From: a virus
Lineage: Duplodnaviria > Caudoviricetes
Direction: 5' to 3' (one strand)
IMG/VR virus record: IMGVR_UViG_3300021426_000067
DNA length: 64,000 nucleotides
The stretch's first letter is position 1; every line of letters begins with the position of its first letter. A model generated the notes under the pieces. That model was not told the DNA's origin. It saw only the letters and a program-made list of their open reading frames with translations, and ran no database searches. Positions 1,169 through 39,148 of this stretch are shown here, in pieces. Made by a program: the position numbers and the translations under genes.

Positions 1169-3127
1169 TCAGTTTTCAAGGTAATGCTTTATGAAGTCTG
1201 CTTCTGATAGGATTGGTATACCTCGTTGTTTAGCTGCATTATTCTTAGCTGAATTACTATTTACATCATTGTTAATAAGTAAATCAGTTTTTCCTGTAAT
1301 AGAACTTCCAACTTTTCCGCCAGCTTTTTCAATAATAGATTTTAATTTGTCTCTATTTTTAAAATTTGTAAGTTTTCCAGTAATAACAATAATTTTTCCT
1401 TGTAAATTACTATTTATTAAAGTGTTGTTTACAACAGGGGTTTCAATAATTAAAATTTTAGAAATTCTATCAGCTTCAGAATAATCAAAAGTTTTTAAGA
1501 AATTATCCATTTCTATGCCGAAATTAGGTAAGTCATAAAAATGATATTCCTTATCTTTTACAGCATTACGGAAATCTTCATAAGTTTTAAATTCTTTAGC
1601 TAAATCTGCTGCAACTGTTTTTCCGATAAAAGGAATACCGATAGCAGAAATAAACGCATTAAGAGTTGTATGTTTATGTTCTTCTATTGATGCAAGAATT
1701 TTGTCAACAGATTTAGTACCAAAGCCACTTTTATTAATCCATTCATTTCTATGGGCGGCAAGGGTAAAAACATCTTCTATATTATTTACCCAGCCCCAAT
1801 CAATAAGTTTTTCAAAAGTTGCTTTTGAAAGTCCTTTTATATCAAGTCCTTTCTTTCCGCAAAAATGGTCAAGTCTATTGATTAACTTACCTCCGCATTG
1901 AGGATTAGTACAATATAAAACCTCACTATCAATATCTTTTCTTATTTCTGTTGGCTGACCGCAATATGGGCAAATCTTGGGGATTTCAATCATTGGAATA
2001 TTGTTAGGATTATCTTCCTGTGCGCTTTCAACCTGTGGAATAATTTGATTAGCTTTATAAATAAAAACTTTCTGACCAGGATAAGCGCCACCCATAAGCT
2101 GTACCATAACGCTAATATTATGTAAACTTGCTCTATTACAGATTGCTCCATCAATTTCAATATCTTTATAAATTAAAACAGGAGTAAGCTGTCCAGTTCT
2201 TCCCATAGTCCATTCAATATCTTTGACTTCTGTTTCATAAGATTCATCATAGAATTTATATGCCAAACCGCCCTTGAAGTGGTGGTCTGTGCGGCCTGCC
2301 GCCTCATAATCTTTAACATTATCATATTTAAATACAACTCCGTCAATAGGGTAGCCTTTCTCTTTTGCTCTATCTTTAATATAAGTTATTGGTATATTAA
2401 GAGAATTAGCTTCTTTAATTTCTTCATCTATAATATAAGGTACTATATTAAAGCCAAGAATTTGTAACCCTATTAATTTAACGAATAATGAAGCCGCCTC
2501 TTCTTCTGCTTCTATTATATCCCAAGCCACAAAAGTTAATTTTCTTTTTTTACATTCTTTTGAATCTAATAATCTTATACTTCCACTTGCAAAATTACGA
2601 GGATTTTTATAATCTTTTTTAAATGATTCAAAATCTTCATAAGTACAAATAATTTCTCCATCAATGATTAATTCTTTTTTATATTTGATTTCATTAGGGA
2701 TAGATGAAATTACTAAAGCATTATGAGTAACATCTTCCCCTTCTATACCGTTTCCTCTTGTTTCTGCGGAAACCAGTTTTCCATCAACATAGCGTAATGA
2801 ACAAGTTAAACCATCCATTTTTGCCATAGCAATCCATTCATGTCCTTTTATAAAAGATTCTACTTCTTTTATATTTTTTGTTTTATTAAGGGAAAGCATT
2901 GGATGATTATGTTTAACTTTTTTTAATTCAGAAACTTTTTTAAAATGGATTTTATGAGTAGGAGAATTTTTAAAAAAGAAATCACATTCTTCTTCCAAAG
3001 TTTTTAATTCAAAATAAAGATTATCCCATTCTTCATCTGTCATTGTGGGAGTTCCTTTATCATATTCCTCTGTTGCTTTATTTAATAAAATTGTTAATTC
3101 TTTAATTCTTAAAATTCGTTTATCCAT
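1169..3127 (-). CDS. ligA: NAD-dependent DNA ligase
   Basis: HPMLSL, KMDG adenylation motif, ETRGNGxxGEDVT, NPRNFASGS, CPYC..C..C zinc finger, C-terminal BRCT domain. Confidence 0.95.
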   Translation of the reverse strand: MDKRILRIKELTILLNKATEEYDKGTPTMTDEEWDNLYFELKTLEEECDFFFKNSPTHKIHFKKVSELKKVKHNHPMLSLNKTKNIKEVESFIKGHEWIAMAKMDGLTCSLRYVDGKLVSAETRGNGIEGEDVTHNALVISSIPNEIKYKKELIIDGEIICTYEDFESFKKDYKNPRNFASGSIRLLDSKECKKRKLTFVAWDIIEAEEEAASLFVKLIGLQILGFNIVPYIIDEEIKEANSLNIPITYIKDRAKEKGYPIDGVVFKYDNVKDYEAAGRTDHHFKGGLAYKFYDESYETEVKDIEWTMGRTGQLTPVLIYKDIEIDGAICNRASLHNISVMVQLMGGAYPGQKVFIYKANQIIPQVESAQEDNPNNIPMIEIPKICPYCGQPTEIRKDIDSEVLYCTNPQCGGKLINRLDHFCGKKGLDIKGLSKATFEKLIDWGWVNNIEDVFTLAAHRNEWINKSGFGTKSVDKILASIEEHKHTTLNAFISAIGIPFIGKTVAADLAKEFKTYEDFRNAVKDKEYHFYDLPNFGIEMDNFLKTFDYSEADRISKILIIETPVVNNTLINSNLQGKIIVITGKLTNFKNRDKLKSIIEKAGGKVGSSITGKTDLLINNDVNSNSAKNNAAKQRGIPILSEADFIKHYLEN

Positions 3128-3203
3128 TATTTTCTCCTTTTTTTATATAAAAATATTATAACATATTTTTTATAAAAAATCAAAAAAGAGGGGCGACCCC
3201 TCT

Positions 3204-5549
3204 TTAAAATTTTACAACAGAGGAAATATTAGATTTTATCATAATATTTCCATAACTGGTTCTGGTTAATAAAGGTAAATCTGATGCGGTAATACATATA
3301 GAATTAGGCTGGCCTGTAAGAAGAACTGTATCAGAGTTAGATACGACAAAGGCTCCCGCAATATTTCCATAAACTACGCTTGGTTTATAAATTACAAGAC
3401 CTTTTCCGCCACGTCCTTGTACATTAAATTCTTTAACAGAAGTCTTTTTACCATATCCTTTTGTTGAAAATATAGCAATCTGATCTTTATCAGAAGAGAT
3501 AGGGAGTCCAACAACAACCTCGTCATCTTCATCTAATTTAATAGTTTTTACTCCTGCCGCAACTCTGCCAATAGGATTGACATTTTTACTTTCAAAATGA
3601 ATTGACATTCCATTCTTAGTAATAACTAAAATATTTTCTTCATTGATAAATTCTACATTTGCAATAGAATCACCTTCATTAATTTTAATTGCCGCAATTC
3701 CCGTACTTCTTTTTACTTTTGTATATTCTTCAAGATAGGTTTTTTTCATTAAACCTTTTTTAGTAAAGAATACAACATATTTAGCAGTATTGCTTCTGGC
3801 AAGAGAGGTGATAGCAATAACTTCATCATTTTCATCCATATGAATTAATGTACCCACATGAGTTCCTTTTGAAGCATTTGTTCCAACCGGCACTTCATCT
3901 ACGATAATTTTATACATCTTACCTTTTTTAGTAAAAAGAAGAAGATTATCAATAGTATTAGTAGAAATGGTAGACATTACTACATCATCTTTTGTTTTTA
4001 TGCCTTTCCCATTTTTGCGCTGTACCTTAAAAGATTTTGTAGGTACACGTTTAATATCACCAGATTGAGACAATATAACAACGCAATCTTCTGGAACAAC
4101 TTCTTCAATTTTTTTCTCTTCAGGTTTGATGTCAATATGAGTTAATTCAGTGCGGCGAGCATCTCCATATTTGTTAACCAGTCCTTGAAGCCGTACTTTA
4201 AGAATTCCGATTTGCTCATCTCGACTATCTAAAATCTGATTAAGCATAAAAATTTTATCTTTTAAATCTTCGGCTTCTTTTTCTAATTCAACTTTTTCAA
4301 GTTTTGCAAGAGAAGAAAGTCTCATAGCTAAAATTGCTTTAGCTTGATTTTCTGTGAACTGATATTTTTTAATTAATGCTTCTTTTGCGGCAGCCGCACT
4401 TTCAGAACTTTTAATCAGCGCTATAATGTTGTCAATATCTTCGAGTGCCCGCAGTAAACCATTAACAATTTCAAGTCTATCAATAGCTTTGTTTAAATCA
4501 AATTGAATTTCTCTTACAATACAATTAATATTAAAATCAACATAAACTTTGATACAATCTTTAAGATTTAGTTCAGTTGGTACTTTATCAATAAGAGCAA
4601 CTTGATTATAACTAAATGAACTTTGAAGATTTGTTTTTGAAAATAACTTATTTACGATACTGATGGGATTAATTTTTTTATCACATTCAATAACAATTCT
4701 AATACCTTTTTTATTAGATTCGTCACGAATATTCTCAATTCCTTCAATTTCTTTTGAATCAGCAACTTCGCCAATTTCTGCCATTAATCCTTCAACAGTA
4801 GTTCCATAAGGAATCTCAGTAAAGATAATTTTTCGTTTATCAATTTCATACTTACCGCGGACTTTTACACTTCCATGGCCAGTTCTCATAATAGTTGGAA
4901 TATCTTTTGAATTAATAATAATTCCACCCGTAGGAAAATCTGGTCCAGGAAGCATCGGTTCTTCTCCCGCTAAATATTGATTAATTGCGGCAGCTACTTC
5001 ATTTAAATTATGGGGTGCCCATGAGCAAGCCATAGCCACACCAATTCCGCTGTTAGGATTACAAAGTAAATTTGGGAAGATGCTTGGTAATGAAATTGGT
5101 TCTTCTGTTGTTTCATCATAGTTTGGAAGGAAATCAACATTATTTTTCTTTATACCTTGAAGTAATCCATCTTCAGCAAGTTTACTCAATCGACATTCAG
5201 TATAACGCATGTGAGCAGGTCCATCGCCAATAATATTACCATTATTCCCATGAAAATCAATTAATGGATAACGCATAATCCAATTTTGTGATAACCGCAC
5301 TAACGCGCCATAGATAGATGAATCTCCATGTGGATGATATGTACCCATAATATCACCCACAAGTTTAGCTGCTTTTACATGAGGTTTTTTTGATACACAT
5401 TTAGTTTTATCTTCAGCTCCCCATAAAATGCGTTTAGCAACTGGTTTAAGACCATCTTTAGCATTAGGTATAGCACGGTCAGTATTCACGGCAACCGCAT
5501 ATTCTATAAAATTTGTTCCTAATTCTTTTGTTAAATCATTCTGCATCAT
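3204..5549 (-). CDS. gyrA: Type IIA topoisomerase / DNA gyrase subunit A
   Basis: DGLKPV, YHPHGDSSIY, AHMRYTE active-site Tyr, GPDFPTGG, beta-pinwheel CTD with QRKNGKG and QGRGGKG. Confidence 0.9.
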   Translation of the reverse strand: MMQNDLTKELGTNFIEYAVAVNTDRAIPNAKDGLKPVAKRILWGAEDKTKCVSKKPHVKAAKLVGDIMGTYHPHGDSSIYGALVRLSQNWIMRYPLIDFHGNNGNIIGDGPAHMRYTECRLSKLAEDGLLQGIKKNNVDFLPNYDETTEEPISLPSIFPNLLCNPNSGIGVAMACSWAPHNLNEVAAAINQYLAGEEPMLPGPDFPTGGIIINSKDIPTIMRTGHGSVKVRGKYEIDKRKIIFTEIPYGTTVEGLMAEIGEVADSKEIEGIENIRDESNKKGIRIVIECDKKINPISIVNKLFSKTNLQSSFSYNQVALIDKVPTELNLKDCIKVYVDFNINCIVREIQFDLNKAIDRLEIVNGLLRALEDIDNIIALIKSSESAAAAKEALIKKYQFTENQAKAILAMRLSSLAKLEKVELEKEAEDLKDKIFMLNQILDSRDEQIGILKVRLQGLVNKYGDARRTELTHIDIKPEEKKIEEVVPEDCVVILSQSGDIKRVPTKSFKVQRKNGKGIKTKDDVVMSTISTNTIDNLLLFTKKGKMYKIIVDEVPVGTNASKGTHVGTLIHMDENDEVIAITSLARSNTAKYVVFFTKKGLMKKTYLEEYTKVKRSTGIAAIKINEGDSIANVEFINEENILVITKNGMSIHFESKNVNPIGRVAAGVKTIKLDEDDEVVVGLPISSDKDQIAIFSTKGYGKKTSVKEFNVQGRGGKGLVIYKPSVVYGNIAGAFVVSNSDTVLLTGQPNSICITASDLPLLTRTSYGNIMIKSNISSVVKF

Positions 5550-5790
5550 TTATAACCTCATAATTTACTTCTAAAGGAGCACCCCAATCTTCTATCCTAT
5601 AATCATCTATAATTAAATCTAAATCGCATAAAAGATCTTCTTCATCAAGAAATTTCATAGAATTTTCTTTTAATCTTTGAAGTTCCTCTTCTGTTAATTC
5701 TAAAATACCTTCTTTATGTCCATAACGTAAATACCCAAAAACATAATCTAATGGAATATTAAATTTTACTTTTATTGTTTTATTCTGCAT
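5536..5790 (-). CDS. Hypothetical acidic protein between gyrB and gyrA
   Basis: Small ORF overlapping both neighbours by a few bases (translational coupling); ATG at 5790. Confidence 0.6.
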   Translation of the reverse strand: MQNKTIKVKFNIPLDYVFGYLRYGHKEGILELTEEELQRLKENSMKFLDEEDLLCDLDLIIDDYRIEDWGAPLEVNYEVINDAE

Positions 5791-7696
5791 TATATGTAGC
5801 CTCCGCACTATGTTCTTTAATATATCTTTTTCTTGGCATAACTAAATTACCCATTAAATCATTAAAAAGTTTATTAGCCGCTGTAACATCTTCAACAGTA
5901 ATTTGTTTAATAATTCTGTTATTTGGATCTGTAAGAGTTTCTTCAATCTCTTCAACGTCCATTTCACCAAGACCTTTCATACGACCAATCTGACTTGTTT
6001 TTCCCCTATTTTCTTTTTGAAACTCAGCTAATGCTTCATCATTTTTAAGATATTTATAGCCTTTATTTGCAGCAAGAGTAACTTTATAAAGAGGGGGAAC
6101 GCCTGCATAAACATATCCATCTTTAACTAAATCTGGACAAAAGTTCCATATAAACGTATAGAAAAGATTTTTAATATGTGCTCCGTCAACATCTGCATCT
6201 GACATAATAATTATCTTACCATATCGGACTTGATGATAATTTACTTTTAAAGTTTTAGGATCAATAGACCAGTCTCCAGGTCCAAAGAAAGCATCACACA
6301 TTGTCATAATTTCTGCATTTTTTTGAATTTGTGCAAAAGTAGCTTTCTGTGTATTAAGGATTTTACCACGAACAGGAATAACTGCCTGAAATTCATTATC
6401 ACGAGCAAGTTTTAACATACCTGCCGCACTATCTCCCTCAACGACATAAACTTCACATTTATCTCTTCTTTCAGAATAACAATCCGCAAGTTTAGTGTCA
6501 AATTTAAGTGCTTTTTGTTTCTTTTTATTCTGTTCTCTTGCTTTATCTCTTGCTTTCTTCGCGGCGTCTCGTGCTTTACGTGCGGCAGCCGCCTTCTCAA
6601 AAATTAATTTTACTTCTTTTTCATTATTATTAAACCAAATATTTAAATTTGTGCTTAATGCAGAAGTAAAAGGAGTCATATCAATTTTTGTAACTCTGCT
6701 TTTGACCTGGGCATCATATCCTACATTTGGGGCTGTAATATTAAATACTACATACATTCCCTCTTGAATATCATCACCAGTTAAATTTGCATCTTTTTCT
6801 TTTAACCATTTTTTCTCTTTAAAGAATTTATTAAATTCCCTTGTAATAACAGTTTTAATCTGAGTGATATGTGGTCCAGATTCAGTCAAGCCTGTATTGA
6901 CATAGGGAACAATAGTAGAAGAATAATTGCTTGTATATGTGAAAGCCATATCAAGTTTATTTTTACCTTCTGAAAAATTCATTGAAAAACGATTATCAAG
7001 AAGTTCTGCATTTTTATTTACAACATTATTTATTAAGTCATGGATACCATTTACAGAAACAAAAATGATTGGTGCTTCATTATTATATTGTAAATTGATA
7101 GTTAATCCAGGGCATAAACTTACAATAGTTTGAAATAAATCTTTAATTTTATTTATTTCGACTTCTGTATGTGTAAAAAATTCTCCTGAAGGTTTCCATT
7201 CAACAAGAGTACCAGAAACACCTCCCGCACCAGTTGTTCTATTAGAAAAAACACCTTCTTCAAAATATACTTCTTCCCATTGTGAATCTCTCATTGTTTT
7301 AACTCTTAACCAATGAGAAAGAAAAGTAGTAATTTTAGAACCAATACCAAAAGAACCTAATGAAGTTCCTTCATAAGTTCCATCTTCTCGATATTTACCT
7401 GATGTATTTAATACACTGAAAGCTGCTTCAAGAATAGTTTTTCCATCTTCTCTAAATGAATTTGGAATAAAACCTTGTCCATAATCTCGGACTGCAACCA
7501 TATCTCCAATTATTGTTACATCAATTTTATTTCCATGTCCAAGTCGATATTCATCAACTGCATTAGAAATAATTTCAACTAACAACTGAGTTGAATATGT
7601 ACAATCACCGGCATATACTTGAGGACGAAGTCTTGTAAATTCAAGAGGACTTAAACTTTCAATACTCTCTTCTGTATATAAATGTTTATCGTTCAT
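5780..7696 (-). CDS. gyrB: Type IIA topoisomerase / DNA gyrase subunit B
   Basis: EIISNAVDE and DYGQG (GHKL ATPase), VEGDSA, PVRGKILN, IMSDADVDGAHI (TOPRIM), KGLGEM. Confidence 0.92.
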   Translation of the reverse strand: MNDKHLYTEESIESLSPLEFTRLRPQVYAGDCTYSTQLLVEIISNAVDEYRLGHGNKIDVTIIGDMVAVRDYGQGFIPNSFREDGKTILEAAFSVLNTSGKYREDGTYEGTSLGSFGIGSKITTFLSHWLRVKTMRDSQWEEVYFEEGVFSNRTTGAGGVSGTLVEWKPSGEFFTHTEVEINKIKDLFQTIVSLCPGLTINLQYNNEAPIIFVSVNGIHDLINNVVNKNAELLDNRFSMNFSEGKNKLDMAFTYTSNYSSTIVPYVNTGLTESGPHITQIKTVITREFNKFFKEKKWLKEKDANLTGDDIQEGMYVVFNITAPNVGYDAQVKSRVTKIDMTPFTSALSTNLNIWFNNNEKEVKLIFEKAAAARKARDAAKKARDKAREQNKKKQKALKFDTKLADCYSERRDKCEVYVVEGDSAAGMLKLARDNEFQAVIPVRGKILNTQKATFAQIQKNAEIMTMCDAFFGPGDWSIDPKTLKVNYHQVRYGKIIIMSDADVDGAHIKNLFYTFIWNFCPDLVKDGYVYAGVPPLYKVTLAANKGYKYLKNDEALAEFQKENRGKTSQIGRMKGLGEMDVEEIEETLTDPNNRIIKQITVEDVTAANKLFNDLMGNLVMPRKRYIKEHSAEATYNAE

Positions 7697-7764
7697 ATTT
7701 TTTACCTTTCATTTTTTATTATATAATAATATTATAACAAATTTTTTTAATTTTAGCAAATTTT

Positions 7765-8268
7765 TTACGAGAGCTTAATCTGAATATGGTTCTTTAATAT
7801 AAGATTTGAAAATTTTTGCTTGTCTGCCGCGGCAAGAGCATCAGCCAATTCATTCCCTATAATTCCTTTATGTCCTTCAACTTTGACAATATAAATTTGA
7901 TTAATGAAAAATTTTATATTATAATATTCATATAGGGATAATATAATATCCAGATTTTTTACAGTTTTGTTTTTACTATTCTTCCAGTCATTTTGACTCC
8001 AAGAATAAATCCAAGAAGTGAGGATATTTATACAATATGCAGAATCAGAATAAATTGTAGCTTGTTCATTTTTATATTTAGAATTTAATAATTCAAATGT
8101 TTTTAGAAATGCTTTTAATTCCATTTGATTATTTGTTACATTATCAAATTGTTCAGAATAAGCATCAATTAAATTGCGGTTTTCATCAAATATTATTATA
8201 CCATAGCCGCCCTTTGAATTATTTTTACCATTCCCGCGACAAGAACCATCTATATAAATATATAACAT
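7765..8268 (-). CDS. rnhA: Ribonuclease HI
   Basis: YIDGSC, TNNQMEL, YSDSAY, KVEGH, GNELADALA. Confidence 0.92.
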   Translation of the reverse strand: MLYIYIDGSCRGNGKNNSKGGYGIIIFDENRNLIDAYSEQFDNVTNNQMELKAFLKTFELLNSKYKNEQATIYSDSAYCINILTSWIYSWSQNDWKNSKNKTVKNLDIILSLYEYYNIKFFINQIYIVKVEGHKGIIGNELADALAAADKQKFSNLILKNHIQIKLS

Positions 8269-8341
8269 ATTATAATCTCCTTGATATTTTTATAGTATAT
8301 TATATAATAAAATCTTATTTTTGTCAAATAGAGACAAAAAA

Positions 8342-8378
8342 ATAGGTATTTTAATAGCTTTAGCTATTAAAATACCTA
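8342..8378. terminator. Hairpin terminator downstream of holin
   Basis: Inverted repeat ataggtattttaatagct/agctattaaaatacctat. Confidence 0.6.
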
Positions 8379-8390
8379 TACAGTTTGTTT

Positions 8391-8657
8391 TTATTTTTTA
8401 GGCTTTTGATATGTCATAGCCTGGGCACTATCAGTAACTCCTGCTGTTGTAGGGTCATTAAGTGCGTTCCATACTGATACAGCAATTAAACCAAGCACAT
8501 AGGGATTACTTAAAGCTCCCATTAAAAGGTTGCCAAGTGCTCCCCAAGTTGTAAGATCTTGAAGAGTTAATCCCGCATATGCGAGAATTGGAGTTAAGAT
8601 AGCAAGGATAAGTTGAACAATAAAAACAGGATTTCTAAATCTGACTTTTAGATTCAT
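8391..8657 (-). CDS. Holin, phi-LC3 family
   Basis: MNLKVRFRNP start, two TM segments, NDPTTAGVTDSAQA motif; GGAGG RBS. Confidence 0.88.
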   Translation of the reverse strand: MNLKVRFRNPVFIVQLILAILTPILAYAGLTLQDLTTWGALGNLLMGALSNPYVLGLIAVSVWNALNDPTTAGVTDSAQAMTYQKPKK

Positions 8658-8742
8658 ATATATACCTCCATTCAACAATAAAAAAACATTCCTTAGAGAT
8701 TTGATTCTCTAAGGAATATAAAAAATAGAAGTATATAATTAT

Positions 8743-9237
8743 TCATTTTTGTCCAAAATCCACCATCATCCGCAGTCCTTCTTTACTATTGTATTTAAAG
8801 ATGTTATCAAAGCCTTCTTTAAAAGAAGGTTCAACAAGCTGAGTAAACATACGGCGAATAGTGCCTCTGGGGACATATGCGCGAGTTCCTTTGCGTTTTT
8901 CATTTCTCTCTAAACAAGTTTCAAGATCTTCATCAATAAGAACAATATTGAGTTTAGCATATCCTGTAACGTGTTGAATGAACCATTTTCTGGATCTTGG
9001 AGTAAGAGATGTCTGATCTGCTACAACATGATTTCCTTTAGCAAGATTATCATTAATCTGTTTCCAAAATTCTTTAGTAACTTCATCTTCCCGTGAAAAA
9101 TAATCCTCATCAGGTGATACTAAAGAAAAACGAATTTTATCACGAGAAATTACTGAAACAGCTTGATTAAAATTTTCTTCAATAAAAGTTGATTTTCCTG
9201 CGCCAGGACAACCACACATTAAGTATAAGTTAGCCAT
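8743..9237 (-). CDS. P-loop kinase (AAA_33 / polynucleotide kinase-like)
   Basis: GCPGAGKST Walker A, ISRDKIR, CLERNEKR, EGFD. Confidence 0.85.
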   Translation of the reverse strand: MANLYLMCGCPGAGKSTFIEENFNQAVSVISRDKIRFSLVSPDEDYFSREDEVTKEFWKQINDNLAKGNHVVADQTSLTPRSRKWFIQHVTGYAKLNIVLIDEDLETCLERNEKRKGTRAYVPRGTIRRMFTQLVEPSFKEGFDNIFKYNSKEGLRMMVDFGQK

Positions 9238-9505
9238 TATAATTTTCCTTTCTAAGAGTTTTTAAAGGTTTTATTCTATTGCCATCTTTATCAAAATTAT
9301 GATGCTCCATTTCATATTTAAAATCTTCATAAGTATAATTTGAATAAGGCTTTACTTCAGCGTGATTCCAAAGTTTCCCACAATATACACAATAAAGTTT
9401 TTTTAAATGTCCATCCTCGCGGGAATGGGATTTTTTTCTACAGATTGGTAATCCCTCTTTTCCGCAGTTACAGCAATACATTTTTGAAATTGTAAAATTA
9501 CTCAT
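9230..9505 (-). CDS. Zinc-ribbon protein
   Basis: CCNCG...GHLKKLYCVYC. Confidence 0.7.
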   Translation of the reverse strand: MSNFTISKMYCCNCGKEGLPICRKKSHSREDGHLKKLYCVYCGKLWNHAEVKPYSNYTYEDFKYEMEHHNFDKDGNRIKPLKTLRKENYNG

Positions 9506-9731
9506 TAGATGTATTCATTACCTCCTTTAAGAAATAAAGAGATTTAGCAAAATCTTTTATATCGTCTAAAATAAATTCATCCTCAATATAGAATACATCT
9601 CTATGATATTTGTCATAATACCAACCTTGGAAATTTATGATAAATTGTCCAAACCGCCAGTCAGGAAAATAGGTTCTATGAATTTCTTTTAATGTTTCAT
9701 AAAAAGTATCTAATCTATTAGGGTCTCTCAT
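9498..9731 (-). CDS. Conserved phage hypothetical protein
   Basis: MRDPNR...PDWRFGQ...FYIED pattern; RBS and upstream promoter. Confidence 0.7.
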   Translation of the reverse strand: MRDPNRLDTFYETLKEIHRTYFPDWRFGQFIINFQGWYYDKYHRDVFYIEDEFILDDIKDFAKSLYFLKEVMNTSNE

Positions 9732-9946
9732 AATATCACTCTCCTTTTGTTTTTTAACTTTTAAATATTTTTATTTCTCATTTCTATAAAAATTATAACA
9801 AAATTTTTATAAAATATCAAAAAATTCTTTGTGGTCAAGATATAATAATTAAAATAAATAAATTTTTAATATAAGTATGGAAAGAAAATTTTTAAATGAA
9901 ACTATTGAGGTTTCTTATTGTTTTTATAAAATGGAGGAAAAATATT

Positions 9947-10228
9947 ATGTTAAATGGAAGAGTAGGGCAAGTAGTTGGCCCATTTGAAGCAGGAGTAGAT
10001 TTATTAGATAGTGATGCTCCTATTGGTGCGTATACACCTGAAACTTCAAGACCTATTATTTATAAATTAGGTATTCAGGCGGCAGAGGGTACTGAAGTAA
10101 AAATTAATAAAGCAACCATTAAAATTGGTAAAACAGGCATTTATGAATTGGATAATGTTGTTGATGTATATCGTTTAATTTTCCCGAATGGAGCAGATTC
10201 AGATACTCTTGTTGATTTTGTATATTAA
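9947..10228 (+). CDS. Small virion-associated protein (paralog of 39200-39562 and of the C-terminus of 43648-44337)
   Basis: GGAGG RBS before ATG 9947; GQVVGPFEAG...KLGIQ...IGKTGIYELD...VDFVY. Confidence 0.75.
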   Translation: MLNGRVGQVVGPFEAGVDLLDSDAPIGAYTPETSRPIIYKLGIQAAEGTEVKINKATIKIGKTGIYELDNVVDVYRLIFPNGADSDTLVDFVY

Positions 10229-10259
10229 TTAACAAAAATCGTAAAGGAGATAAAAGGAT

Positions 10260-26867: not shown

Positions 26868-26916
26868 AAAGGAATGGTAGTTTCCTTGGAAAGCACAAAA
26901 AGAAGGGGTATAAAAT

Positions 26917-27693: not shown

Positions 27694-27709
27694 TTAAGGA
27701 GGATTGCTT

Positions 27710-28165: not shown

Positions 28166-28175
28166 GGAGGTTAAA

Positions 28176-29023: not shown

Positions 29024-29069
29024 GAGTAATCTTATTTTATAAATAAATAGAGAAAATGGAGGAATATTT

Positions 29070-32000
29070 ATGAATAAAGCCTCTGCTTTTAGAATAAAAC
29101 AGGCGGATGGAACTTATGGCGATCCTATCGTTTTTGGATTAGACAAAAGTGAAGTTTGGCCAAGTACAAAAGAGATACCAGAAAACGCTGATTTAGACGA
29201 TTACGTTTTACCTGGAACTTATAATTGTTTAACCAATGTAATATCAGCAACTATTTCTAATGTCCCGTTGCCTAAAGCCTTTTCGCTTATTGTTTATAGA
29301 ACCGGACGCCTTAATAGTTGTGTGCAATTTCTGTCGGTGTTTTCTAATGGTTTATCAAGTCAGGGTGCGCAAGACGATGCCAATCGCATATTCACAAGAA
29401 CATATTATCATGAAGACGGTTGGTCGCCGTGGACAGAAATAGTAACAAGTTTGGACAGACCTGTTGATTATACATCGGCTGGATGGACGCTTGATACATA
29501 CGCTGACCACTGTTGGCATAAGATGGCTACTTTTAGAAATACCAATAGTACAACAGATCGTCGAGCCGTGTTTCTTGTGACAGATTCTTACTGGTACGGA
29601 ACTTCTGCACCTAATGGAAGACCAGATTTAAAAATTGGTTTGTTACATGTTCATATTCGTAAAACAATTGGAACTTGTGCGTCGACCAGAAGGCTGTCTT
29701 TTAATTTAAATGCTGGTTACGATCCAAATGATTTTGTTCTGGTATACAATCCAGTTGATGATTCAGACGAATTGTGGACAAGAATTCCAATACGTTATAC
29801 ATTTCGAACTTTCAATCTTATAGAAACTGGTCTGCATTATGGCGGGAATCGATATTACCAAACAACGGTTAATCCTATTGAAATGTATAGGCGAGTGCGG
29901 GATTCTGAGGGTTATGATTCCTACCCTACTGGCGAAGGTTATGTAGCAATTACAGCCGAAAATGCAGTCATAGAACAACCGTCAAGAGGTATTGTCGATC
30001 TTGGAGTTTACTATAATAAAACTACTACAAAACGGCTGACTTCAGCCAATAATTTGCCGTGCGGCGATGCTAATTTAAAGTATTTTAATTCTACGTCATC
30101 CATGACCGTTGCAGAAGGTAAACCGATTCATACTAAATCCTTAAGCGCAATGGACGCGCATGTGCTGCATTTGCCATGGGATAATGCCGGCGGGTACGAT
30201 GCGCAGATTGCTGTACCGAATAACTTAACAACGTCGGAAGACCCGGACGTTATAAAAACAGTTCAATGGCGCGCTGGAACAGGTCAAAAAACCACACTGG
30301 ATGACGGAACCGTAATTCAAACTGATTGGTCTGATTGGCAGCACGTTGTCGATAGCCAGTTTACATTTGATGGTATTCATCCGAATCATAGGCATGTAAG
30401 TCATTATGCAGTATGTTCTACACCTGCTGCTACTGCGGTAAAAACTGTTGATATTCTTGGCTTTTAGTTGGTTGCTGGCGCGTATGTAATTATTACGTTC
30501 ACAAATAAAAATACTGCTGCAGTTGCAAATTTAAAACTCAATGTGTCAAATACTGGAGATATTCCAATAAAATATCATAATGAAAATTTAGTGGCGACTG
30601 GAGATTTAATTGCTAATCGTCCATTTATGTTTGTATATGACGGAACAAATTGGCAACTTGGTATTGATATTGATAAAAATACTAATACTAATTATTATGA
30701 TAGAATGAAAACTGCGGGAGCTGTTTATCCTAAAGAAAATATTACTACTACTACTATTATAGTTAATGATGGTACTGGTTATTTTAAATTAAGAGCAGAA
30801 CCTTTTAATATAACTTATCCAATATTAGCTACTGGAGCAGCTTTTACAGCAGGTACTGCAAATGCAAATGCTTATACTGTTTATCATTTTGCTATAAAAA
30901 ATACTCAAAATTTTACAATGACTCAGCATGCTCCAGTATTTATTAAAGGAACCTTAAATGGAGTAATGTTTACTCCAGTAAGTAATACTCCATTAGTACA
31001 AACATTACCAAATACAGAAGACGGTTATCAATATATATATCTTGGATATGCCTATTCAACAGCTAATATACAACTTGTTTAGACGCATCCTATTGTAGAA
31101 TATGTAAATGGTGCAATTAGACCGTATCAAGAAAAAAGATATGGAGATAGAATTTTAGCGCGATTACCGGATACAAGTGCTACACCAAATGATGCTGATT
31201 ATTTAGAAAATCTTTTTGCAAAAGGTCGAATTTTATTACAACCAAATGCTCATTATCATCTTAGACGCACAGTTATATTGCCAGAAAATATAGATATTGA
31301 TATGAATGGCGCGACTATTGAATATAATGGGCCTGGATGGGATGGACCTGATGAAGATCATTTATCTGATACCTCAAATTATAATTATACAACTGGTTGT
31401 GCTTTTCTTAACGTAAGAGATGGAGGACATCCTGCCAGCGCATCCGATCCAGATAGAAATATAACAGCTTATAATGGTCGCGGTAATATGCGTTTTTATA
31501 ATGGAACCTTTATGAACTGTGCTTTTGGTTTACTTCATGGGCATGATATTTCGTTTGAAGATATAACTTTTACTGAAGTTCATACAAACCATGTATTTCA
31601 GATATGTGCATGTAAAAATGTAAGTTTTGAACGTTGTACATTTTTCGGTATGGATAAAACAATTGATTATCAATATACGCCTGATGCTTCTAATCCTATT
31701 CAAAGTAATAATGAAGTTATTAATTTAGATTGTGCTACTGCAAGTGGGCAATTTATAGGAATATGGTTTCTTGAACCTATTGGTTCAACAAATGCAGCGA
31801 CTTGGGATGACTATGCTTGTAGAGAAATAACTGTTAATAACTGTACTTTTCGTCCTAATAATGACAGTATTATGTTTGATGCAATAGGCTATCATGCTAA
31901 TTTTATGAAGCCTTTAACTGATGAAGTATCTGGCGCCGCAGATTATAAATATAATTTACATAAAAATATACGAGTAACTAATAATTATTTTTATGGAACA

Positions 32001-32696
32001 AAAAAGAGTACGGGCTATAATAAATATAGTATAGCATTTTTAATTCGTCATATGATGAATAGCACTTTTGCAAATAATGTATGTGAAAATGTTAGGTCTT
32101 TATGTTTAATTGATCATGTTCGAAATATTACTATTACTGGAAATGTAGCAACAAATAATGGAGAAAATTATGCGATATGTCAAATAGTTTCGACTTCACA
32201 TAATTCAACTCTTCAAGGAGTAGCGAATTTTAAAACATTATCTAAATATTTAAATATTTCTGGTAATCTTGGATTAGACGCTTTAGCTACGCGGATTGAT
32301 ACAGAAGATAATATAACAACAATAGCTAATAGAAAAATTTATAAATATGCGGAATGGACACCAAATACTTCAGCTTATCCAAGATTTAATATAGATGGTC
32401 AAACAGTTACTTTATATGGACGTGTTAAAGCTACCGCGTCAAAAACAATAAGTTCAGAAGAAAGCGTTATGTGTCTTCCTGTTGGTCTTAGACCTACAAC
32501 AACAGTAGCTTGGATTCAACGTATTGATACATATGGAGGCAGTCCCGCTAATGCGGCTGTTCTTATTAAAATACTTAAGTCAGGTGAAATGTCTATAAAC
32601 CCCATTGGAGGGTCAATAAATGTTATTGCGGGAAGTGACCTTTGGCTTGATGGAACTTATTTAAATGATGGCGCAAGCTATACTTATGGTGGTTAA
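29070..32696 (+). CDS. Tail fibre/spike with right-handed beta-helix (possible depolymerase), 1208 aa with 2 TAG
   Basis: ORFs 29070, 30468 and 31278 join in frame; ADLDDY..PGTY and WSPW/WSDW fibre motifs; pectate-lyase-like repeats in the C-terminal half. Confidence 0.78.
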
Positions 32697-32745
32697 TTTA
32701 TATAAATAATATTGGTTTTATATTTAAGATAAGGAGCCAGATATA

Positions 32746-33324
32746 ATGGGTAAAAAAAGAGTATTTGCAATTAAAATAAAATACTCCGATGGGACTTTTT
32801 CAGATGAAATTCCTATTGGATTATTAGAAGAAGATTTAGCGCATGTCGCTATATCTGGTGAATATGAAGATTTATAGAACGCCCCAAAAATAAAACCAGG
32901 AGAAGGGGAAGATAGTATTGTATCTAATGAAGGTTATGCAGCGGAAGGTGATTTTGCACATGCGGAAGGTTATGGTACAATAGCAACAGATGACTATCAA
33001 CACGTAATGGGGCGTTATAATAAAATAAATGACGAAACTGATGACCCATTAGTTTTTATTATTGGTAATGGAACAAGTGGGTCAAACACGTTTCGTTCTA
33101 ATGCGGCTACGGTGGACTGGGACGGGAATGGTTGGTTCTCAGGACGAGTTTCCGCAGGCACATAGTAGTTTCCTGCGCCGATTGAAAAAAATAATGATTT
33201 AACAACTAAGCAATATGTTGATGATAAAATCAGTGATATTGAGATTGAAGGCGGCGGAGGAATAAATGTAGAGTTATCTGGGGAGAACTTAATTTTTCTT
33301 AATCCTCAGCATAGCGAAGATTAA
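32746..33324 (+). CDS. YadA/Hep-Hag-like fibre protein (3 TAG, including a tandem TAGTAG)
   Basis: AAGGAG RBS; AHAEG, QHVMGRYN, IIGNG..RSNA, DLTTKQYVD. Confidence 0.75.
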
Positions 33325-33343
33325 ATAAAAAGGAGAAAATAAT

Positions 33344-34885
33344 ATGAGTTCTTTTTATGGAAATGGAGGCTACTCCTCAGGTGGCGGAGGAGGTAGCGGT
33401 GAGGTAACCTCAGTCAACGGTAAGAAGGGGCAAGTAACCCTGGACGCCGCCGATGTGCATGCTTTACCAGAAGATACCTTGATTCCTTCTCTTGAGGGGC
33501 TTGCTACAGAAGAATGGGTACAGGAACAGGGATATGCTACAGAAGGGGAAATCCCAACACATATGGTGAATGGTTCTGCAGCTGGTTCGGTGCGTGGTAT
33601 CAATACAGCGTCTGAGGATTCGTCCTACACGATGGGTACTTATGCGTTTGCGGAAGGTTATACTACCAAAGCAAGCGGTCTGCGATCACATGCGGAAGGC
33701 TTCGAAACTACAGCAAGTGGACAGGATTCCCATGCTGAAGGAAGTTCAACAACAGCAAGTGGTAGTAGTTCGCATGCAGAGGGGTCTGGTAATCAAGCAA
33801 CAAATTACTCTTCACATGCTGAAGGTGGTTGGACAACAGCAAGCGGAACAGGATCACACGCTGAAGGTATGTCAACAACAGCCAGTGGGATAGCATCACA
33901 TGCCGAAAATATGTCAACAACAGCAGTAGGTGACTATTCACATGCAGAAGGTAATTCAACGACAGCAAGCGGTCCACAGGCTCATGCGGAAGGTATATCA
34001 ACGACAGCAAGTGGGATGGCATCACATGCTGAAGGTGGTGGTACAACAGCACAAGGATATATGCAGCATGTTATGGGTGAATATAATGTTCCGCAGGGGA
34101 CACAAGACTCCCACACAAGCAGTGATTATATATTTATCGTTGGAAATGGCACTGCACAAAATCCGTCTAACGCATTTGCTATGAAGTGGGATGGTACTTT
34201 TGTTTTTGCCAATAGCACAGAAATTACTCCTGCTCAATTTGCTTCTTTATATAATATAAATAATAAAATTCCTTTAACAGGGAATGAAACAGAAGGTCAA
34301 GTATTAACAATAGATGAAAATGGACAACCTAAATGGGATAATACTTCTTTTGTAAAAGTTACAGATGATGGTCAAGGTAATGTATCTATGGAAACTTTAT
34401 ATGGGGTTTTAATAGATGCAGTACCTACACAAAATAGTAATAATTTGGTTACAAGTGGCGGGGTGTATGCAATGCAATCACCAACAATTGATTTTAGTGT
34501 AAGTTCTTTTACAAATAATACATCTGTAACTTGTAATATGACTTGGGAACAAATTTATAATACAACTGGGTCTCAAAAAGAAAAAAATATTATTTTACAT
34601 GATACTTATGCTTCTTAGAGTTTTTACTGTTATAAAGCTGTTAAAACATCTGGGTTAGGAGGAGTTACTATATCTTTCTATTTTTTAAATGAAGATTTAA
34701 ATACTCAATATGTTGTAAAAACACATAGCAGCGGAAGTATGACATTATTAGTAAATAATCTTTTATCAAATTATGCACTGAAGAGTGAAATTCCTACTGT
34801 CACTAATGATTTTACAAATGATTATAAAAACAAAGTTGATTCGTTATGGGAAGACTATCAGGATGCCATAACAGCTTTAGGTTAA
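33344..34885 (+). CDS. Fibre/adhesin with 14-aa SHAEGxxTTASG repeats (1 TAG)
   Basis: About 10 tandem SHAEG repeats; VTSVNGKKG motif; extends past TAG at 34616-34618 to TAA 34885. Confidence 0.8.
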
Positions 34886-34898
34886 GGGGGGTGACGTA

Positions 34899-35726
34899 AT
34901 GGAAAAAGTATTGACTCCCAAAATTGAAGCATTGACCGCATATGCGAACGGAATAACTGGGAAAAATGATACAACCTTATCTGATGCGGTAGCAAGTTTA
35001 GCTGATGGATATGGACAAGGTGGACAATCCTATGAAGGGATAGAGGTTGTCACCGATTCGAGTGGAAAGATAACAGACTATATCTTCCACATGGAGACAG
35101 TGCCAGATTTTGTGCTTAACTATCTTGGGTACAACAGGAATGATAGGACGGATGGTATACCGAACATTAAATTTGCTGTAAAACCAAAGCATATTGGCAC
35201 GTATGCGTTCAACAAAGCGAAGGTAAAGATGGACTGGTCTAGTCTGTCTGAGATAGAGACAATCGACGGAGAATTCGCACTTTCGTTGTCTTATAGCCAG
35301 TATAATGATGCATCTGCTGATGTCGTAAATCTTCCTAAATTTGTCGGATATACGACAACGAACGTATCTATTTCACTATTCAGAACTGAAAGTGTACACG
35401 CACCAAAAGTATTCAATCTGCCAGTGTGTGCAGTCATACCGCAGTTCGCATGGTATCAATTTGCTGTGACTGATCTTGATGTGACCATCGGCAGTATTGG
35501 TCATGCTGTTACAGGCTCAAGAGTACAGCCATTCGGTTCGACTTCCAAGGCAAGCGGAACTGTAACAATCTATACCAAAGGTGATGTTCTTGATACATTG
35601 AGAACTGCAGTACAGCAGTATGCAGGAGCAAATATCTCTTTTATCTACAAGGCGGCTGAAGCCACAACTTATAATGATGTCAATTATCAAGCAGGAGACA
35701 CAATTCTTACAAGTACATCAACATAA
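34899..35726 (+). CDS. Hypothetical fibre-associated protein
   Basis: Intact ORF with RBS; TGKNDTTLSDAV..L..GYG N-terminus. Confidence 0.65.
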   Translation: MEKVLTPKIEALTAYANGITGKNDTTLSDAVASLADGYGQGGQSYEGIEVVTDSSGKITDYIFHMETVPDFVLNYLGYNRNDRTDGIPNIKFAVKPKHIGTYAFNKAKVKMDWSSLSEIETIDGEFALSLSYSQYNDASADVVNLPKFVGYTTTNVSISLFRTESVHAPKVFNLPVCAVIPQFAWYQFAVTDLDVTIGSIGHAVTGSRVQPFGSTSKASGTVTIYTKGDVLDTLRTAVQQYAGANISFIYKAAEATTYNDVNYQAGDTILTSTST

Positions 35727-35741
35727 AGGAGGTAAAAAATT

Positions 35742-35972
35742 ATGTTATATCTTATTGTTTTAATCGTCACAAACACAGATAGCACCTACTCTTATTATAC
35801 TTATGATTTTCGTAGTTTTGCGACTGCTCTTGTTGCTTATGATCGCAAACAGGCAGAAATTACAGCAGACACAAGTAGAACATTTTATACTATCAAGCTG
35901 ATGGATGCGACAGGCAACATTCTCAAATCCGAAGAGCGTGATCTTACAAACATGAGAGCGCAGGAAGAATAA
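35742..35972 (+). CDS. Hypothetical protein
   Basis: AAGGAGG RBS, intact ORF. Confidence 0.6.
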   Translation: MLYLIVLIVTNTDSTYSYYTYDFRSFATALVAYDRKQAEITADTSRTFYTIKLMDATGNILKSEERDLTNMRAQEE

Positions 35973-35999
35973 TGGATTATAAAGAAAGGAGTGTCTTAA

Positions 36000-36326
36000 A
36001 TGCCAAATGTAGAAAATAATATTATGAGTACATTTACTATTGGCGGTAAAACGTATCAAGTAGGCAGTGGCGGCAGTTTTATAGTGAGTGCGACTGTAGA
36101 TGAGGAAGATCATGTTGTTTTAAACAACACATGGCAGGAGATTTATGATGCTGCCGCAGCAGGGAAGACTGTTGTCCTGGATACGAGACCATATTTTCAG
36201 AATATTACATATCTGATGACTGTTTTGTTTGAAGATCCAAATTACGTTGTTACGTTCTATAATCTATCTGCATACGCGACTGGTCCGAATGACTATCCTA
36301 CCGTGAGAGGCGGATCATCAAGATAA
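36000..36326 (+). CDS. Hypothetical protein
   Basis: AAGGAG RBS; TWQEIYDA motif echoed in 33344-34885 (TWEQIYN). Confidence 0.6.
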   Translation: MPNVENNIMSTFTIGGKTYQVGSGGSFIVSATVDEEDHVVLNNTWQEIYDAAAAGKTVVLDTRPYFQNITYLMTVLFEDPNYVVTFYNLSAYATGPNDYPTVRGGSSR

Positions 36327-36404
36327 GAATTATTATTATATCAGAATTGGTTAAAAATATATTTTAATAATTAAAAATAATATAAAAAAGAGGTTAAATA
36401 AATT

Positions 36405-37574
36405 ATGGGAACTGTAAAATTACATATTATAGGAATGGATATTCCAGCGGATAAAGGCACTAAAAGTGGTGATTATGCAGTTTTCTATGATGAACACGGT
36501 AACGCATTGGTATTAGATGCAGGTCAAAGACCTGCATCTGCCAAATTGCGTGAATGGATAAAGAAACAAAATTTTAAAAGAATATGGGCAGTAGGTACAC
36601 ATGCACACACAGACCACGTAAACGGAATCATTGATGGGATTTATGACCCTGATATTAAAATAGATAAAGTTTGGTGTGTAGATTATGAATATTTAAAAGT
36701 CTATATGTCTGATAAATATAAATCTAAACCTTGGTACACACAATTATGCAATATGTATAATAGATGTGGGAAAGGTTTATATGATTTATGTAAAAAAAAT
36801 AATATACCTGTAGGTATGTTAAAGACAGGTACACATATTAGAATGGGAGATATTCATTGTAAAGTATTATGGCAAAAATCAAGTTATGGAAGCCCTAACG
36901 ATGATAATACAGCAGGTAGTTATATTAACAATAGTTCTCCTGTTTTCTTATTTGATTTTGGATATTTTACAGCAGGTGATAATCATTTAACACATTCTGA
37001 AATTAGAAAATTATTACCTCAAGTTATTATTGCCCAAATACCGCATCATGGAAATTATGTAGATACAGAAGCCTTTAATAAATTAAATCCTAAAGCCGCA
37101 TGGTATAATTATGGTGAAGTAAAAGGTGCTATTGGAAAAGATAAAGGATTTACTTCATGGACTATTCCTAAATTAACTAAAAAGGGAATAGATATTTGGA
37201 ATAACTATGCTCATGGTGATTTAGATATGATATTTACTGATAAAGAAGTAACTATCAAAAGTAAGAAAAAAGGTAGTAAAACTTATTCTTTAGATAATTA
37301 TAAAAACTGGCAAAGAACTGATACTGAATTGGCGGTTGAGGTTATGCTTGGTAAATGGGGGAGCGGCGATGCAAGAAAAAATGCTCTTGGAACGAGATAT
37401 AGTAATGTGCAAAATATAATTAATAATTTTGTAAAAGATGAGAATATGATGTTAAATGCGATGGCTGATTATGTTATCCGTGGTCTTGCAGGTAATGATG
37501 AAACTCGTAAAAATAACTTAAAAGGTTATTATACAAAAGTTCAAGATATTATTAATGAAAGGTATAAAAAATAA
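36405..37574 (+). CDS. Metallo-beta-lactamase-fold hydrolase with CW_7-like repeats (paralog of 24632-25903)
   Basis: THAHTDH, NNSS, AGD, PHHG; LAVEVMLGKWGSGDARKNALG..Y..VQ..IN. Confidence 0.8.
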   Translation: MGTVKLHIIGMDIPADKGTKSGDYAVFYDEHGNALVLDAGQRPASAKLREWIKKQNFKRIWAVGTHAHTDHVNGIIDGIYDPDIKIDKVWCVDYEYLKVYMSDKYKSKPWYTQLCNMYNRCGKGLYDLCKKNNIPVGMLKTGTHIRMGDIHCKVLWQKSSYGSPNDDNTAGSYINNSSPVFLFDFGYFTAGDNHLTHSEIRKLLPQVIIAQIPHHGNYVDTEAFNKLNPKAAWYNYGEVKGAIGKDKGFTSWTIPKLTKKGIDIWNNYAHGDLDMIFTDKEVTIKSKKKGSKTYSLDNYKNWQRTDTELAVEVMLGKWGSGDARKNALGTRYSNVQNIINNFVKDENMMLNAMADYVIRGLAGNDETRKNNLKGYYTKVQDIINERYKK

Positions 37575-39148
37575 TGGCAAATAAAATAGTTTTTGACTTT
37601 TCAGAACATAATACTTTTTCAAAATCCGATTGGGATAAAATGAAAACTATGTATGATGAAGGAAAACTTCATGGAATTATTCTTAGGATTGGACTAAGAG
37701 GTTCTCTTAAGGATAATCCAGAATACTATGGAAAGATTCGTTATGATTTTAAATTTAAAGATTTCTTAGCGGAGATTAAAAAGAGAAATATTCCATATAG
37801 TGTTTATTTTTTCCCTACTTCTATTACATAGACAGAAGCGCATGAATAGGGAAAATGGTTGGTTTAGGCTTTAAAAGATAATAAAGTAGAGCCTTCTATT
37901 CCAATTTGTCAAGATTCTGAAGTTGTAGATAGTAAAAATAAAAAAGGAAGGGCGGATAAACTTCCAAAAGCAGATAGAACTAAATTTATTAATATTATAA
38001 ACCAGCATTTAAAAGATGCGGGGTACAAATATGGAGTTTATGCTTCTACTTCTTGGTTTTATGATTGTTTAAATGATAAAGACTTATTATAGGGAACCTA
38101 TAGATGGGTGGCGCAATATGCTTCTAAATGTACTTATAAAGGCATTGTTAATATGTGGCAATATACCAGCGGTTATTCTTTAAATGGTAAGCATGTTGAT
38201 GCAAGTTATTGCTATTCTGAAATTAAAACTGCGGAGGCGCTGCCAATAGAAGAAAAGAAAGAAGAGCCTATGAAAACTAAAAAGAAAATAACTGAAGCGG
38301 ATTGCATTGATAAAATGATTGAAATTGCACTTGCGGAAGTTGGCTATTTATAGAAGAAATCTAATTCAAATTTATATAGTAAGACTGGAAATGCGGGGTC
38401 TAATAATTATACTAAATATGGTTATTAGCTTCATAAAATTCAATCAAGTAATATGGACTTCCCTGCCGCTTGGTGTGATGCTTTTGTAGATTGGGTAGTG
38501 TTAGAAACATGTAAGGCTTTTGGTAGAGGAATCGCGGAAGCCAGAAAAGTAATATGCGGTGATTTTGATGATTATACTGTTTATTCCGCAAACTATTATA
38601 AGAAAAAAAATAGATGGTTTACTAAACAACCTAAAAAGGGTGACCAAATATTCTTTAAAAACTCAAGTGGTATTTGTCATACAGGTATTGTATATAAAGT
38701 AGATAGTTCAACAGTTTATACTGTTGAAGGCAATACTTCAAATGCGTCAGGCGTAGTTGCAAATGGCGGAGGCGTCGCTAAAAAATCTTATAATCTGGGT
38801 TATAGCAAGATCGCAGGCTACGGTAGACCAGATTGGAGCGAGATAGTTGGAACCGAAGTCAAGGTATCTGACAGTCTAAAACCTGCGACTTCCGCATCTT
38901 CTTTTACTGTCACTGGCAAAGTTTATCCTAATAAAACTCCTAAATTTAAAGGAGTGGTAACCGCATCTTCACTTAATGTGAGAGCATGGGCGGGAGTTGA
39001 TGAAAAGAAAGTTTCATTCAGTCCGTTATTAAAAGGTAAAGAAATTCAAGTTTGTGATTCTATTTTAGATACTCAAGGAAATACTTGGTATTATATTAAT
39101 TACGATGGCAAATTTGGTTTCGTCAGTTCTGAATATATAAAAATATAA
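37574..39148 (+). CDS. Endolysin: GH25 muramidase + CHAP-like + SH3, 524 aa with 6 TAG
   Basis: FDFSEHN, DSE, WVAQY, WQYTS (GH25); AWCDAFVDW, HTGIV, EGNT, GYGRP (CHAP); SLNVR...GFVSSEYI (SH3); three ORF fragments in frame. Confidence 0.88.

Follow-up and report, generated by a model that had tools for sequence, protein, structure and literature searches.

Phages that reassign a stop codon are common in gut and rumen viromes, where they are routinely mistranslated or translated with genetic code 15. In recoded gut phages (crAss-like, Lak, Agate, Jade and others), Borges et al. (bioRxiv 10.1101/2021.08.26.457843) described an early phase that uses the standard code and a late phase that is recoded, and saw only TAG-to-Gln and TGA-to-Trp reassignments; the early/late model was repeated in PMC10607447. 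Genomes of the Agate clade (10.1101/2021.08.26.457843) measure about 127-154 kb, come from cattle, pig and tortoise gut and include standard, TGA-recoded and TAG-recoded members, and phAss-1 ('Phassvirus') has a 136-kb genome with TAG in 41 open reading frames (ORFs) and suppressor tRNAs (PMC10607447). Here, we analyzed IMG/VR record IMGVR_UViG_3300021426_000067, a stretch of 64,000 nucleotides (hereafter the window; 33% G+C) from a large tailed phage of gut or rumen, for the meaning and distribution of its in-frame TAG codons and for the tRNA(CUA) gene that would read them. TAG, which aligns to Glu, is absent from the replication genes and frequent in most virion, packaging and lysis genes, so that the early/late partition appears to extend to a TAG-to-Glu code. 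That model was already published for TAG-to-Gln and TGA-to-Trp; what is added here is the Glu assignment, a measured selection against TAG and an avoidance of the recoded codon by the capsid gene in two sister clades.

As in the phages of Borges et al., a suppressor tRNA is phage encoded, an in-frame stop is read as sense in many genes, recoded stops occur in structural and lysis genes and leave the replication genes compatible with the standard code, and close relatives use different codes. Homing endonuclease and lysis genes are preferentially recoded, which parallels their intron endonuclease case. Unlike in those phages, TAG stands for Glu, neither release factor 2 (RF2) nor an aminoacyl-tRNA synthetase was found among the window ORFs of at least 250 amino acids (aa) or in five complete relatives, and the major capsid gene and its neighbors shun the recoded codon, no mention of the capsid having been found in 10.1101/2021.08.26.457843. 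Compared by description only, the Agate clade resembles the present family in genome size (130-145 kb here), habitat and mixture of standard, TGA-to-Trp and TAG codes, but two TAG-recoded Agate phages encode RF2 and the five complete relatives do not. By description as well, phAss-1 is similar in genome size, in carrying TAG in terminase, portal and tape measure genes, in its many tRNAs and in having no dedicated aminoacyl-tRNA synthetase; however, TAG is assigned to Gln in PMC10607447, and megablast of window positions 1-25000 found no match among GenBank phages.

Meaning of the TAG codon

With translation table 11, the tail and lysis genes of the window fell into fragments, and readthrough of TAG gave full-length genes. 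For a test of the code, window proteins were aligned by tblastn to 215 related loci. The TAGs of the window stood opposite Glu 474 times, opposite TAG 164 times and opposite Gln 71 times in the relatives; reciprocally, the TAGs of relatives were found opposite window Glu 427 times and opposite Gln 110 times. A leave-one-out fit of codon residue spectra to 20 residue profiles then placed TAG with Glu, 768 log-likelihood units above Gln on counts that are not independent, and assigned each of the 61 sense codons its standard meaning. Outgroups were compared at the TAG sites of a complete relative, G001 (139,781 bp, with a 107-bp terminal repeat), where related loci without in-frame TAG carried Glu at 48% and Gln at 7%, and TGA-bearing relatives carried Glu at 54%. 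These alignments indicate that TAG is a Glu codon in this phage and not a Gln codon. Genetic code 15 (TAG = Gln) was ruled out by the same three comparisons, namely 474 to 71 for Glu over Gln, the 768 log-likelihood units, and 48% versus 7% in the outgroups. The papers searched contained no report of TAG = Glu in phages, and searches of PDB sequences with the endolysin and the resolvase gave no match usable for the identity of the TAG residue.

Because TAG aligns to Glu, the denominator used throughout is the number of Glu-type codons (TAG+GAA+GAG), which a preliminary description of this DNA had rightly proposed. In annotation, early genes come out correctly with either code; all others call for TAG = E.

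Two tRNA genes with Leu anticodons, UAG (58978-59053, minus strand) and CAA (56724-56799, minus strand), are 76 nucleotides (nt) long and have no long variable arm of the kind expected of bacterial tRNA-Leu. A sense-codon reassignment prompted by these short genes was considered and rejected, as CTA and TTG align to Leu.

Distribution of TAG in the window

The TAG share of Glu-type codons was 0/216 in the replication block versus 137/911 (15%) in the virion and lysis genes (Fisher p=3.5e-14), and the region of tRNA and sigma factor genes held 5 TAGs in 177 Glu-type codons (p=1e-6). According to the preliminary description, ligA, gyrA, gyrB, rnhA, the kinase, DUF2828 and sigma genes have more than 3000 codons without in-frame TAG, and the tape measure, tail, resolvase and endolysin genes have many; our recount found 3212 codons with no TAG in the seven former genes, and 44, 18, 9 (in 162 codons) and 6 TAGs, respectively, in the latter. 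TAG trinucleotides do occur in the two other frames of the early genes, at 17.6 and 10.8 per 1000 codons, which makes its absence a property of the coding frame alone. No early gene uses TAG as its stop either, and all of them thus read the same under both codes. The pattern, initially described for positions 1169-39148, continues on the minus strand beyond them, with TAG-rich genes at 39200-49847 and TAG-poor genes at 50102-64000.

The most TAG-dense gene was that of the resolvase, in which 9 of 14 Glu-type codons are TAG against a background of 15%; endolysins had 19-37% and a homing endonuclease 36%. The exceptions named in the preliminary description were also recovered: the gene at the start of the window has 7 TAGs, and 54485-55030 and 61598-62419 have one each of the five TAGs of the tRNA and sigma region, both inside conserved coding regions. 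The TAGs of 63176-63580 and 62965-63195 are probably upstream of the true start.

Conservation and selection in relatives

Relatives in IMG/VR are contigs of 130-145 kb, several of which have direct terminal repeats and 100% CheckV completeness. Orthologue counts from the TAG-recoded loci, given in Table 1, are pooled, and in the 14 contigs that carry both gene classes, TAG made up 0-2% of Glu-type codons in early genes and 10-43% in late genes. A TAG frequency uniform across the genome, which the preliminary description had set against its proposal, was rejected in complete relative G001: among genes with at least ten Glu-type codons, 43 of 89 were TAG-free versus 9.8 expected under a uniform share (chi2 380, df 88, p=5e-38). 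The TAG-free genes of G001 include those of a DnaB-like helicase, a primase, a Dda-like helicase, a Pol III alpha-type polymerase (0/99) and an RNA ligase; TAG-bearing ones include those of TerL (23%), a RecJ-like exonuclease (15%), a GIY-YIG homing endonuclease (36%) and an endolysin (37%). This endolysin gene (128756-131041; L222:8756-11041) encodes 761 aa with 17 TAGs, lies within the TAG-free replication block and is on the same strand as the RNA ligase and gyrB genes. Such a TAG-rich island in a TAG-free block counts against a regional or strand-related explanation.

Substitution at individual Glu codons was compared between the gene classes. At GAA sites of early window genes, the relatives showed GAG at 8.2% and TAG at 0.2%, and at GAA sites of late genes, GAG at 6.8% and TAG at 5.8%. 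As synonymous turnover was similar in both classes and TAG was about 30-fold rarer in early genes, selection rather than lack of time accounts for the difference. This result indicated that TAG in early genes is under purifying selection.

Suppressor tRNA and promoters

The preliminary description had placed the CUA tRNA in an early region of sigma70 promoters, and this was borne out at the level of consensus matches, one such promoter lying 185 nt upstream of the tRNA gene (Table 1). Read with a canonical 7-bp acceptor, tRNA(CUA) has C1-G72, G2-U71 and A73. With its C1-G72 pair, it may hypothetically be charged with Glu and escape amidation. Close relatives carry homologous CUA tRNAs, and a comparison with the phage's own tRNA-Glu and tRNA-Gln gave no clear derivation from either. 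As that description had also stated for the window, neither a release factor nor an aminoacyl-tRNA synthetase was seen among its ORFs of at least 250 aa; PF00472 (RF-1) and PF00749 (glutamyl-/glutaminyl-tRNA synthetase) were likewise absent from the five complete relatives, and the same search found them in 10 and 14, respectively, of 14 reference genomes used as positive controls.

Several further RNAs were observed. A full-length ROOL RNA (55837-56439, minus strand; Rfam RF03087, 361 bits) lies within the tRNA array, and the ORFs 55536-55865, 56101-56328 and 56378-56539 called over it are spurious. A 121-nt segment at 58448-58568 (minus strand), scoring 40.5 bits with the Rfam tRNA model and not called by ARAGORN, may be an interrupted or intron-bearing tRNA. 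Loci of the DUF2828 neighborhood (L136-L215) hold 23 distinct CUA-anticodon tRNAs, some of 89-92 nt with a long variable arm, and UUA-anticodon tRNAs occur at two of these loci, so that stops may stand for other amino acids in more distant relatives.

Strong sigma70-like promoters were defined by at least 11/12 consensus matches, or 10/12 with an extended -10; they are consensus matches only. On the coding strand, 19 such promoters occurred in 24 kb of TAG-free blocks versus 3 in 40 kb of TAG-bearing blocks, an about tenfold difference in density: 7 in 1-10250 (minus), 12 in 50101-64000 (minus), 1 in 10251-39170 (plus) and 2 in 39171-50100 (minus). The upstream regions share a common promoter type, TTGAT..-17-TGTTATAAT. 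A strong terminator-like hairpin parts the TAG-free unit of DUF2828 and tRNA genes from the TAG-bearing genes downstream. It is this regional contrast that holds; for single genes of G001, an association of TAG with a strong promoter no more than 250 nt away fell short of significance (Fisher p=0.11). Host-type promoters ahead of the early genes and a phage sigma gene are both present, which would fit a cascade of host-sigma early and phage-sigma late transcription.

A second sigma-factor-like gene (PHROG 5767) adjoins the terminase genes of G001 (44174-45310; L218:4174-5310, minus strand). With 5 TAGs (15%), it would itself depend on the suppressor.

Late genes that avoid TAG and a second recoded clade

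One late gene group departs from the general pattern. The product of G001 35937-36998 was predicted to be an HK97-type major capsid protein (structure prediction with pLDDT 76; Foldseek probability 1.00 to many phage capsids and encapsulins); Pfam gave no match for the TAG-poor virion proteins, and the capsid was identified via this structure prediction. In 19-29 TAG-recoded relatives, the TAG share was 1.6% for the major capsid protein, 1.0% and 3.4% for two neighboring head genes and 1.2% for a virion structural protein (PHROG 2729), and it was 18-28% for portal, TerL and minor proteins. The family with about 50-60% capsid identity (L225-L303) comprises 29 loci with in-frame TAG (Glu), 13 with in-frame TGA and 23-28 with neither. 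The in-frame TGA of relatives aligned to Trp in 87 of 106 cases. In the 13 TGA loci, TGA was found at 1/46 in the capsid gene and at 0/16 and 0/14 in its neighbors, and reached 48-79% in minor proteins, 33% in portal and 63% in TerL. On these counts, the two independent recodings, TAG to Glu and TGA to Trp, appear to converge on one gene-by-gene profile, suggesting that, besides timing, the yield required of a protein also shapes the distribution.

Ordinary codons shift between the classes as well. From early to late window genes, TTA rose from 49% to 65%, CAA from 59% to 84% and ATA from 19% to 32%, all three being served by phage tRNAs; TAG is thus the extreme of a broader early/late codon shift. 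T4-type phages have tRNA sets matched to late-gene codon usage. The late genes here are similarly enriched in codons served by phage tRNAs, with TAG as the all-or-none extreme; unlike the ordinary codons of T4-type phages, which host tRNAs can decode, TAG makes the phage tRNA indispensable.

Proposed reading and alternatives

We favor, as the probable explanation, that the phage's own early tRNA(CUA) reads TAG as Glu, and that TAG has been purged from the first-needed and the highest-yield genes and drifts in the other late genes. Host-type (sigma70-like) promoters would drive the synthesis of this tRNA along with that of 29 other tRNAs and the phage sigma factor. On arrival, TAG would still terminate translation in the unmodified host, placing strong purifying selection against TAG on the genes needed then, presumably those of the replication enzymes, the sigma factor and the DUF2828 protein. 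In genes translated after the tRNA is present, TAG could drift to about 15-20% of Glu codons; the late genes of very high output, for the major capsid protein and its neighbors, would purge it again, presumably since suppression competes with host release factor 1. Most virion, packaging and lysis proteins cannot be completed without tRNA(CUA), and this real dependence would reinforce the early-to-late cascade of transcription. Its reading as an early-to-late dependency at the level of translation is plausible. The TAG purge in early genes also gives indirect support for a host with the standard code. In a few self-harmful enzymes (resolvase, endolysin and GIY-YIG homing endonuclease), the TAG share exceeds the background two- to fourfold; an adaptive lock on translation is likely for these alone, and they are candidates in which it can be tested.

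The switch of the preliminary description is modified accordingly in two respects. Its concentration of TAG in late genes held for tail, packaging, lysis and nuclease genes; the capsid and other late genes are TAG-poor, the latter including 24632-25903, 29070-32696, 33344-34885, 34899-35726 and 36405-37574 in the window, and some DNA-metabolism genes bear TAG. Its claim that virion and lysis proteins can be completed only with the suppressor likewise stood for most of them, which are TAG-bearing, but the capsid protein and its head neighbors have only 1-2% TAG in recoded relatives, and the division is not simply one of early versus late.

Several observations weigh against the favored reading. 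Early and late genes were told apart solely by their function and by promoter matches to the consensus, and the orthologue counts were pooled across relatives that are not phylogenetically independent. As tRNA(CUA) itself lies in the early region, any delay could be very short. TAG is present in RecJ- and Sak4-type DNA-metabolism genes of relatives, and RNase H has 11% TAG in some of them. Inside the early-promoter region, the two exception genes carry TAG at codons 18 and 20 within conserved coding sequence, and orthologues of the second have several TAGs. The only strong coding-strand promoter of the plus-strand late block, at 18949-18977, precedes a gene with 18 TAGs. The low TAG of 24632-37574 could reflect gene exchange instead of protein yield. 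Lastly, the skew of TAG to the 5' part of window genes is weak, with a mean relative position of 0.44 vs 0.50 (p=0.014; p=0.19 without the tape measure gene).

A purely adaptive role, in which TAG was placed in virion and lysis genes in order to delay their translation until the suppressor accumulates, so that the delay is the function of the recoding, seems unlikely to us. It agrees with the published model (10.1101/2021.08.26.457843) and with the TAG excess in resolvase, endolysin and homing endonuclease; the modest 5' skew of TAG within genes, clearer in G001 (p=0.0009) than in the window, and the position of the two real early-region TAGs at codons 18 and 20 also speak for it. However, a tRNA transcribed from early promoters would give a small delay, and late transcription is already timed by the sigma-factor cascade. 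The uniform share of about 15-20% in most late genes is consistent with drift, and such a role does not predict the avoidance of TAG by abundant late proteins, the capsid among them. The partition is kept by measurable purifying selection, and timing alone is insufficient to explain it, as the most abundant virion protein shuns the recoded codon in both sister clades, whose recodings are independent. That avoidance, together with the general codon-usage shift between gene classes, could instead mean that expression level is all that matters, TAG being a poorly decoded rare Glu codon that is shunned where expression is high, independently of timing, which would hold too if the host reads TAG as Glu. 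We regard this as improbable: the ligase, kinase, gyrase and DUF2828 proteins are not expected to be abundant, and yet their genes are TAG-free over more than 4,000 Glu-type codons of TAG-recoded relatives (gyrA, 1/1279) and never end in TAG. The TAG-free genes moreover coincide with host-type promoters, and the avoidance by the capsid gene is strong but not absolute (1-2%).

Descent offers a further explanation, by which the TAG-free genes were recently gained from donors with the standard code, or a different mutational regime applies to the region or strand in which they lie. In its favor is the TAG-poor late stretch 24632-37574, whose G+C content is higher and which has few orthologues among relatives; when two TAG-poor late genes were compared by tblastn with GenBank phages, only distant matches or none appeared. 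For the core early genes it is largely refuted, because these are family-wide at 50-99% identity with normal GAA/GAG turnover and TAG about 30-fold rarer, contain TAG off-frame, and are found in genomes where both strands hold TAG-rich and TAG-free genes and where, in G001, a TAG-rich endolysin gene is embedded in the TAG-free block. Overall, we consider this explanation very improbable. The favored reading, purging of TAG from first-needed and highest-yield genes with drift elsewhere, can be extended to a graded dial that would be general across sister clades: TAG at zero where the host code must suffice, near zero for capsid yield, at drift level in low-copy virion parts and raised in self-harmful enzymes. 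This extension is possible, and we put it forward tentatively; if true, the same profile would have arisen independently for TAG to Glu and TGA to Trp, as a general rule and not a lineage accident.

Layout of the window and further observations

Features of the window are collected in Table 1.

Table 1. Coordinates of window features, their in-frame TAG content (percentages and fractions refer to Glu-type codons) and the pooled TAG content of their orthologues in TAG-recoded loci
Feature	Position	Strand	TAG in window	TAG in orthologues	Remarks
TAG-rich gene, product not assigned	2-610	-	7/25	216/596 (36%)	Downstream of early block; continues past window edge
Replication block	662-10228		0/216		Genes end only in TAA or TGA; assigned with PHROGs and Pfam; also includes small ORFs
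ligA	1169-3127		TAG-free	0/1234	
gyrA-like	3204-5549		TAG-free	1/1279	
gyrB-like	5780-7696		TAG-free	0/852	
rnhA	7765-8268		TAG-free		
Holin-family gene	8391-8678	-			PF04531, E=4e-26; in replication block behind early-type promoters, far from endolysin; no Glu-type codon, hence uninformative on TAG
Kinase (polynucleotide-kinase-like)	8743-9237		TAG-free	0/180	
Tape measure protein, 2823 aa	10260-18731	+	44 (16%)	18%	
Strong sigma70-like promoter	18949-18977	+			TTGACT-17-TATAAT with TG; upstream of 1622-aa gene
Tail-module protein, 1622 aa	19053-23921	+	18 (18%)	20%	
RuvC-like Holliday-junction resolvase	24133-24621	+	9 in 162 codons	101/239 (42%)	PHROG 827, E=8e-19
Tail and host-recognition stretch	24632-37574	+	0-25% per gene; five larger genes 0-5%		G+C 35-41%; few or no orthologues among the 215 related loci
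Endolysin (GH25 + CHAP + SH3)	37574-39148	+	6 (19%)		All TAGs within first 285 of 524 codons
Large virion proteins (1354, 245, 684, 957, 166 aa)	39200-49847	-	5-25%	13-27%	
Intrinsic-terminator-like hairpin, strong	50064-50088	-			11-bp stem, then T run
DUF2828/DUF7788 vWA (TROVE-like) protein	50102-51646	-	TAG-free	0/478	0/2625 in all loci
Array of 30 tRNA genes and ROOL RNA	51707-60777	-			About 12 strong sigma70-like promoters on same strand
Exception gene in early-promoter region	54485-55030	-	1		Codon 18, inside conserved coding sequence
tRNA(CUA), reader of TAG	57357-57430	-			ARAGORN; Rfam tRNA 62 bits
Sigma70-like promoter	57615-57643	-			TTGCAA-17-TATAAT with TG (extended -10); upstream of tRNA(CUA)
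Phage sigma factor	59725-60615	-	TAG-free	0/106	PHROG 351, E=1.5e-87
Early-type promoter	60658-60686	-			Directly upstream of sigma gene
Exception gene in early-promoter region	61598-62419	-	TAG at codon 20	Several TAG	Inside conserved coding region

The lysis domains of the window (CW_7, SH3_3, GH25 and Phage_holin_1) are of Gram-positive type, which is a hint only as to the host. In the tail and host-recognition stretch, the gene at 24632-25903 joins a metallo-beta-lactamase-fold region to CW_7 cell-wall-binding repeats, and that at 36405-37574 also carries CW_7 repeats; the 1354-aa protein of 39581-43645 has a metallo-beta-lactamase-fold region related to that of 24632-25903. A 12.4-kb locus from another sample (L081; IMGVR_UViG_3300028591_001411) encodes a gyrA-like protein 99% identical to that of the window and probably belongs to the same phage species.

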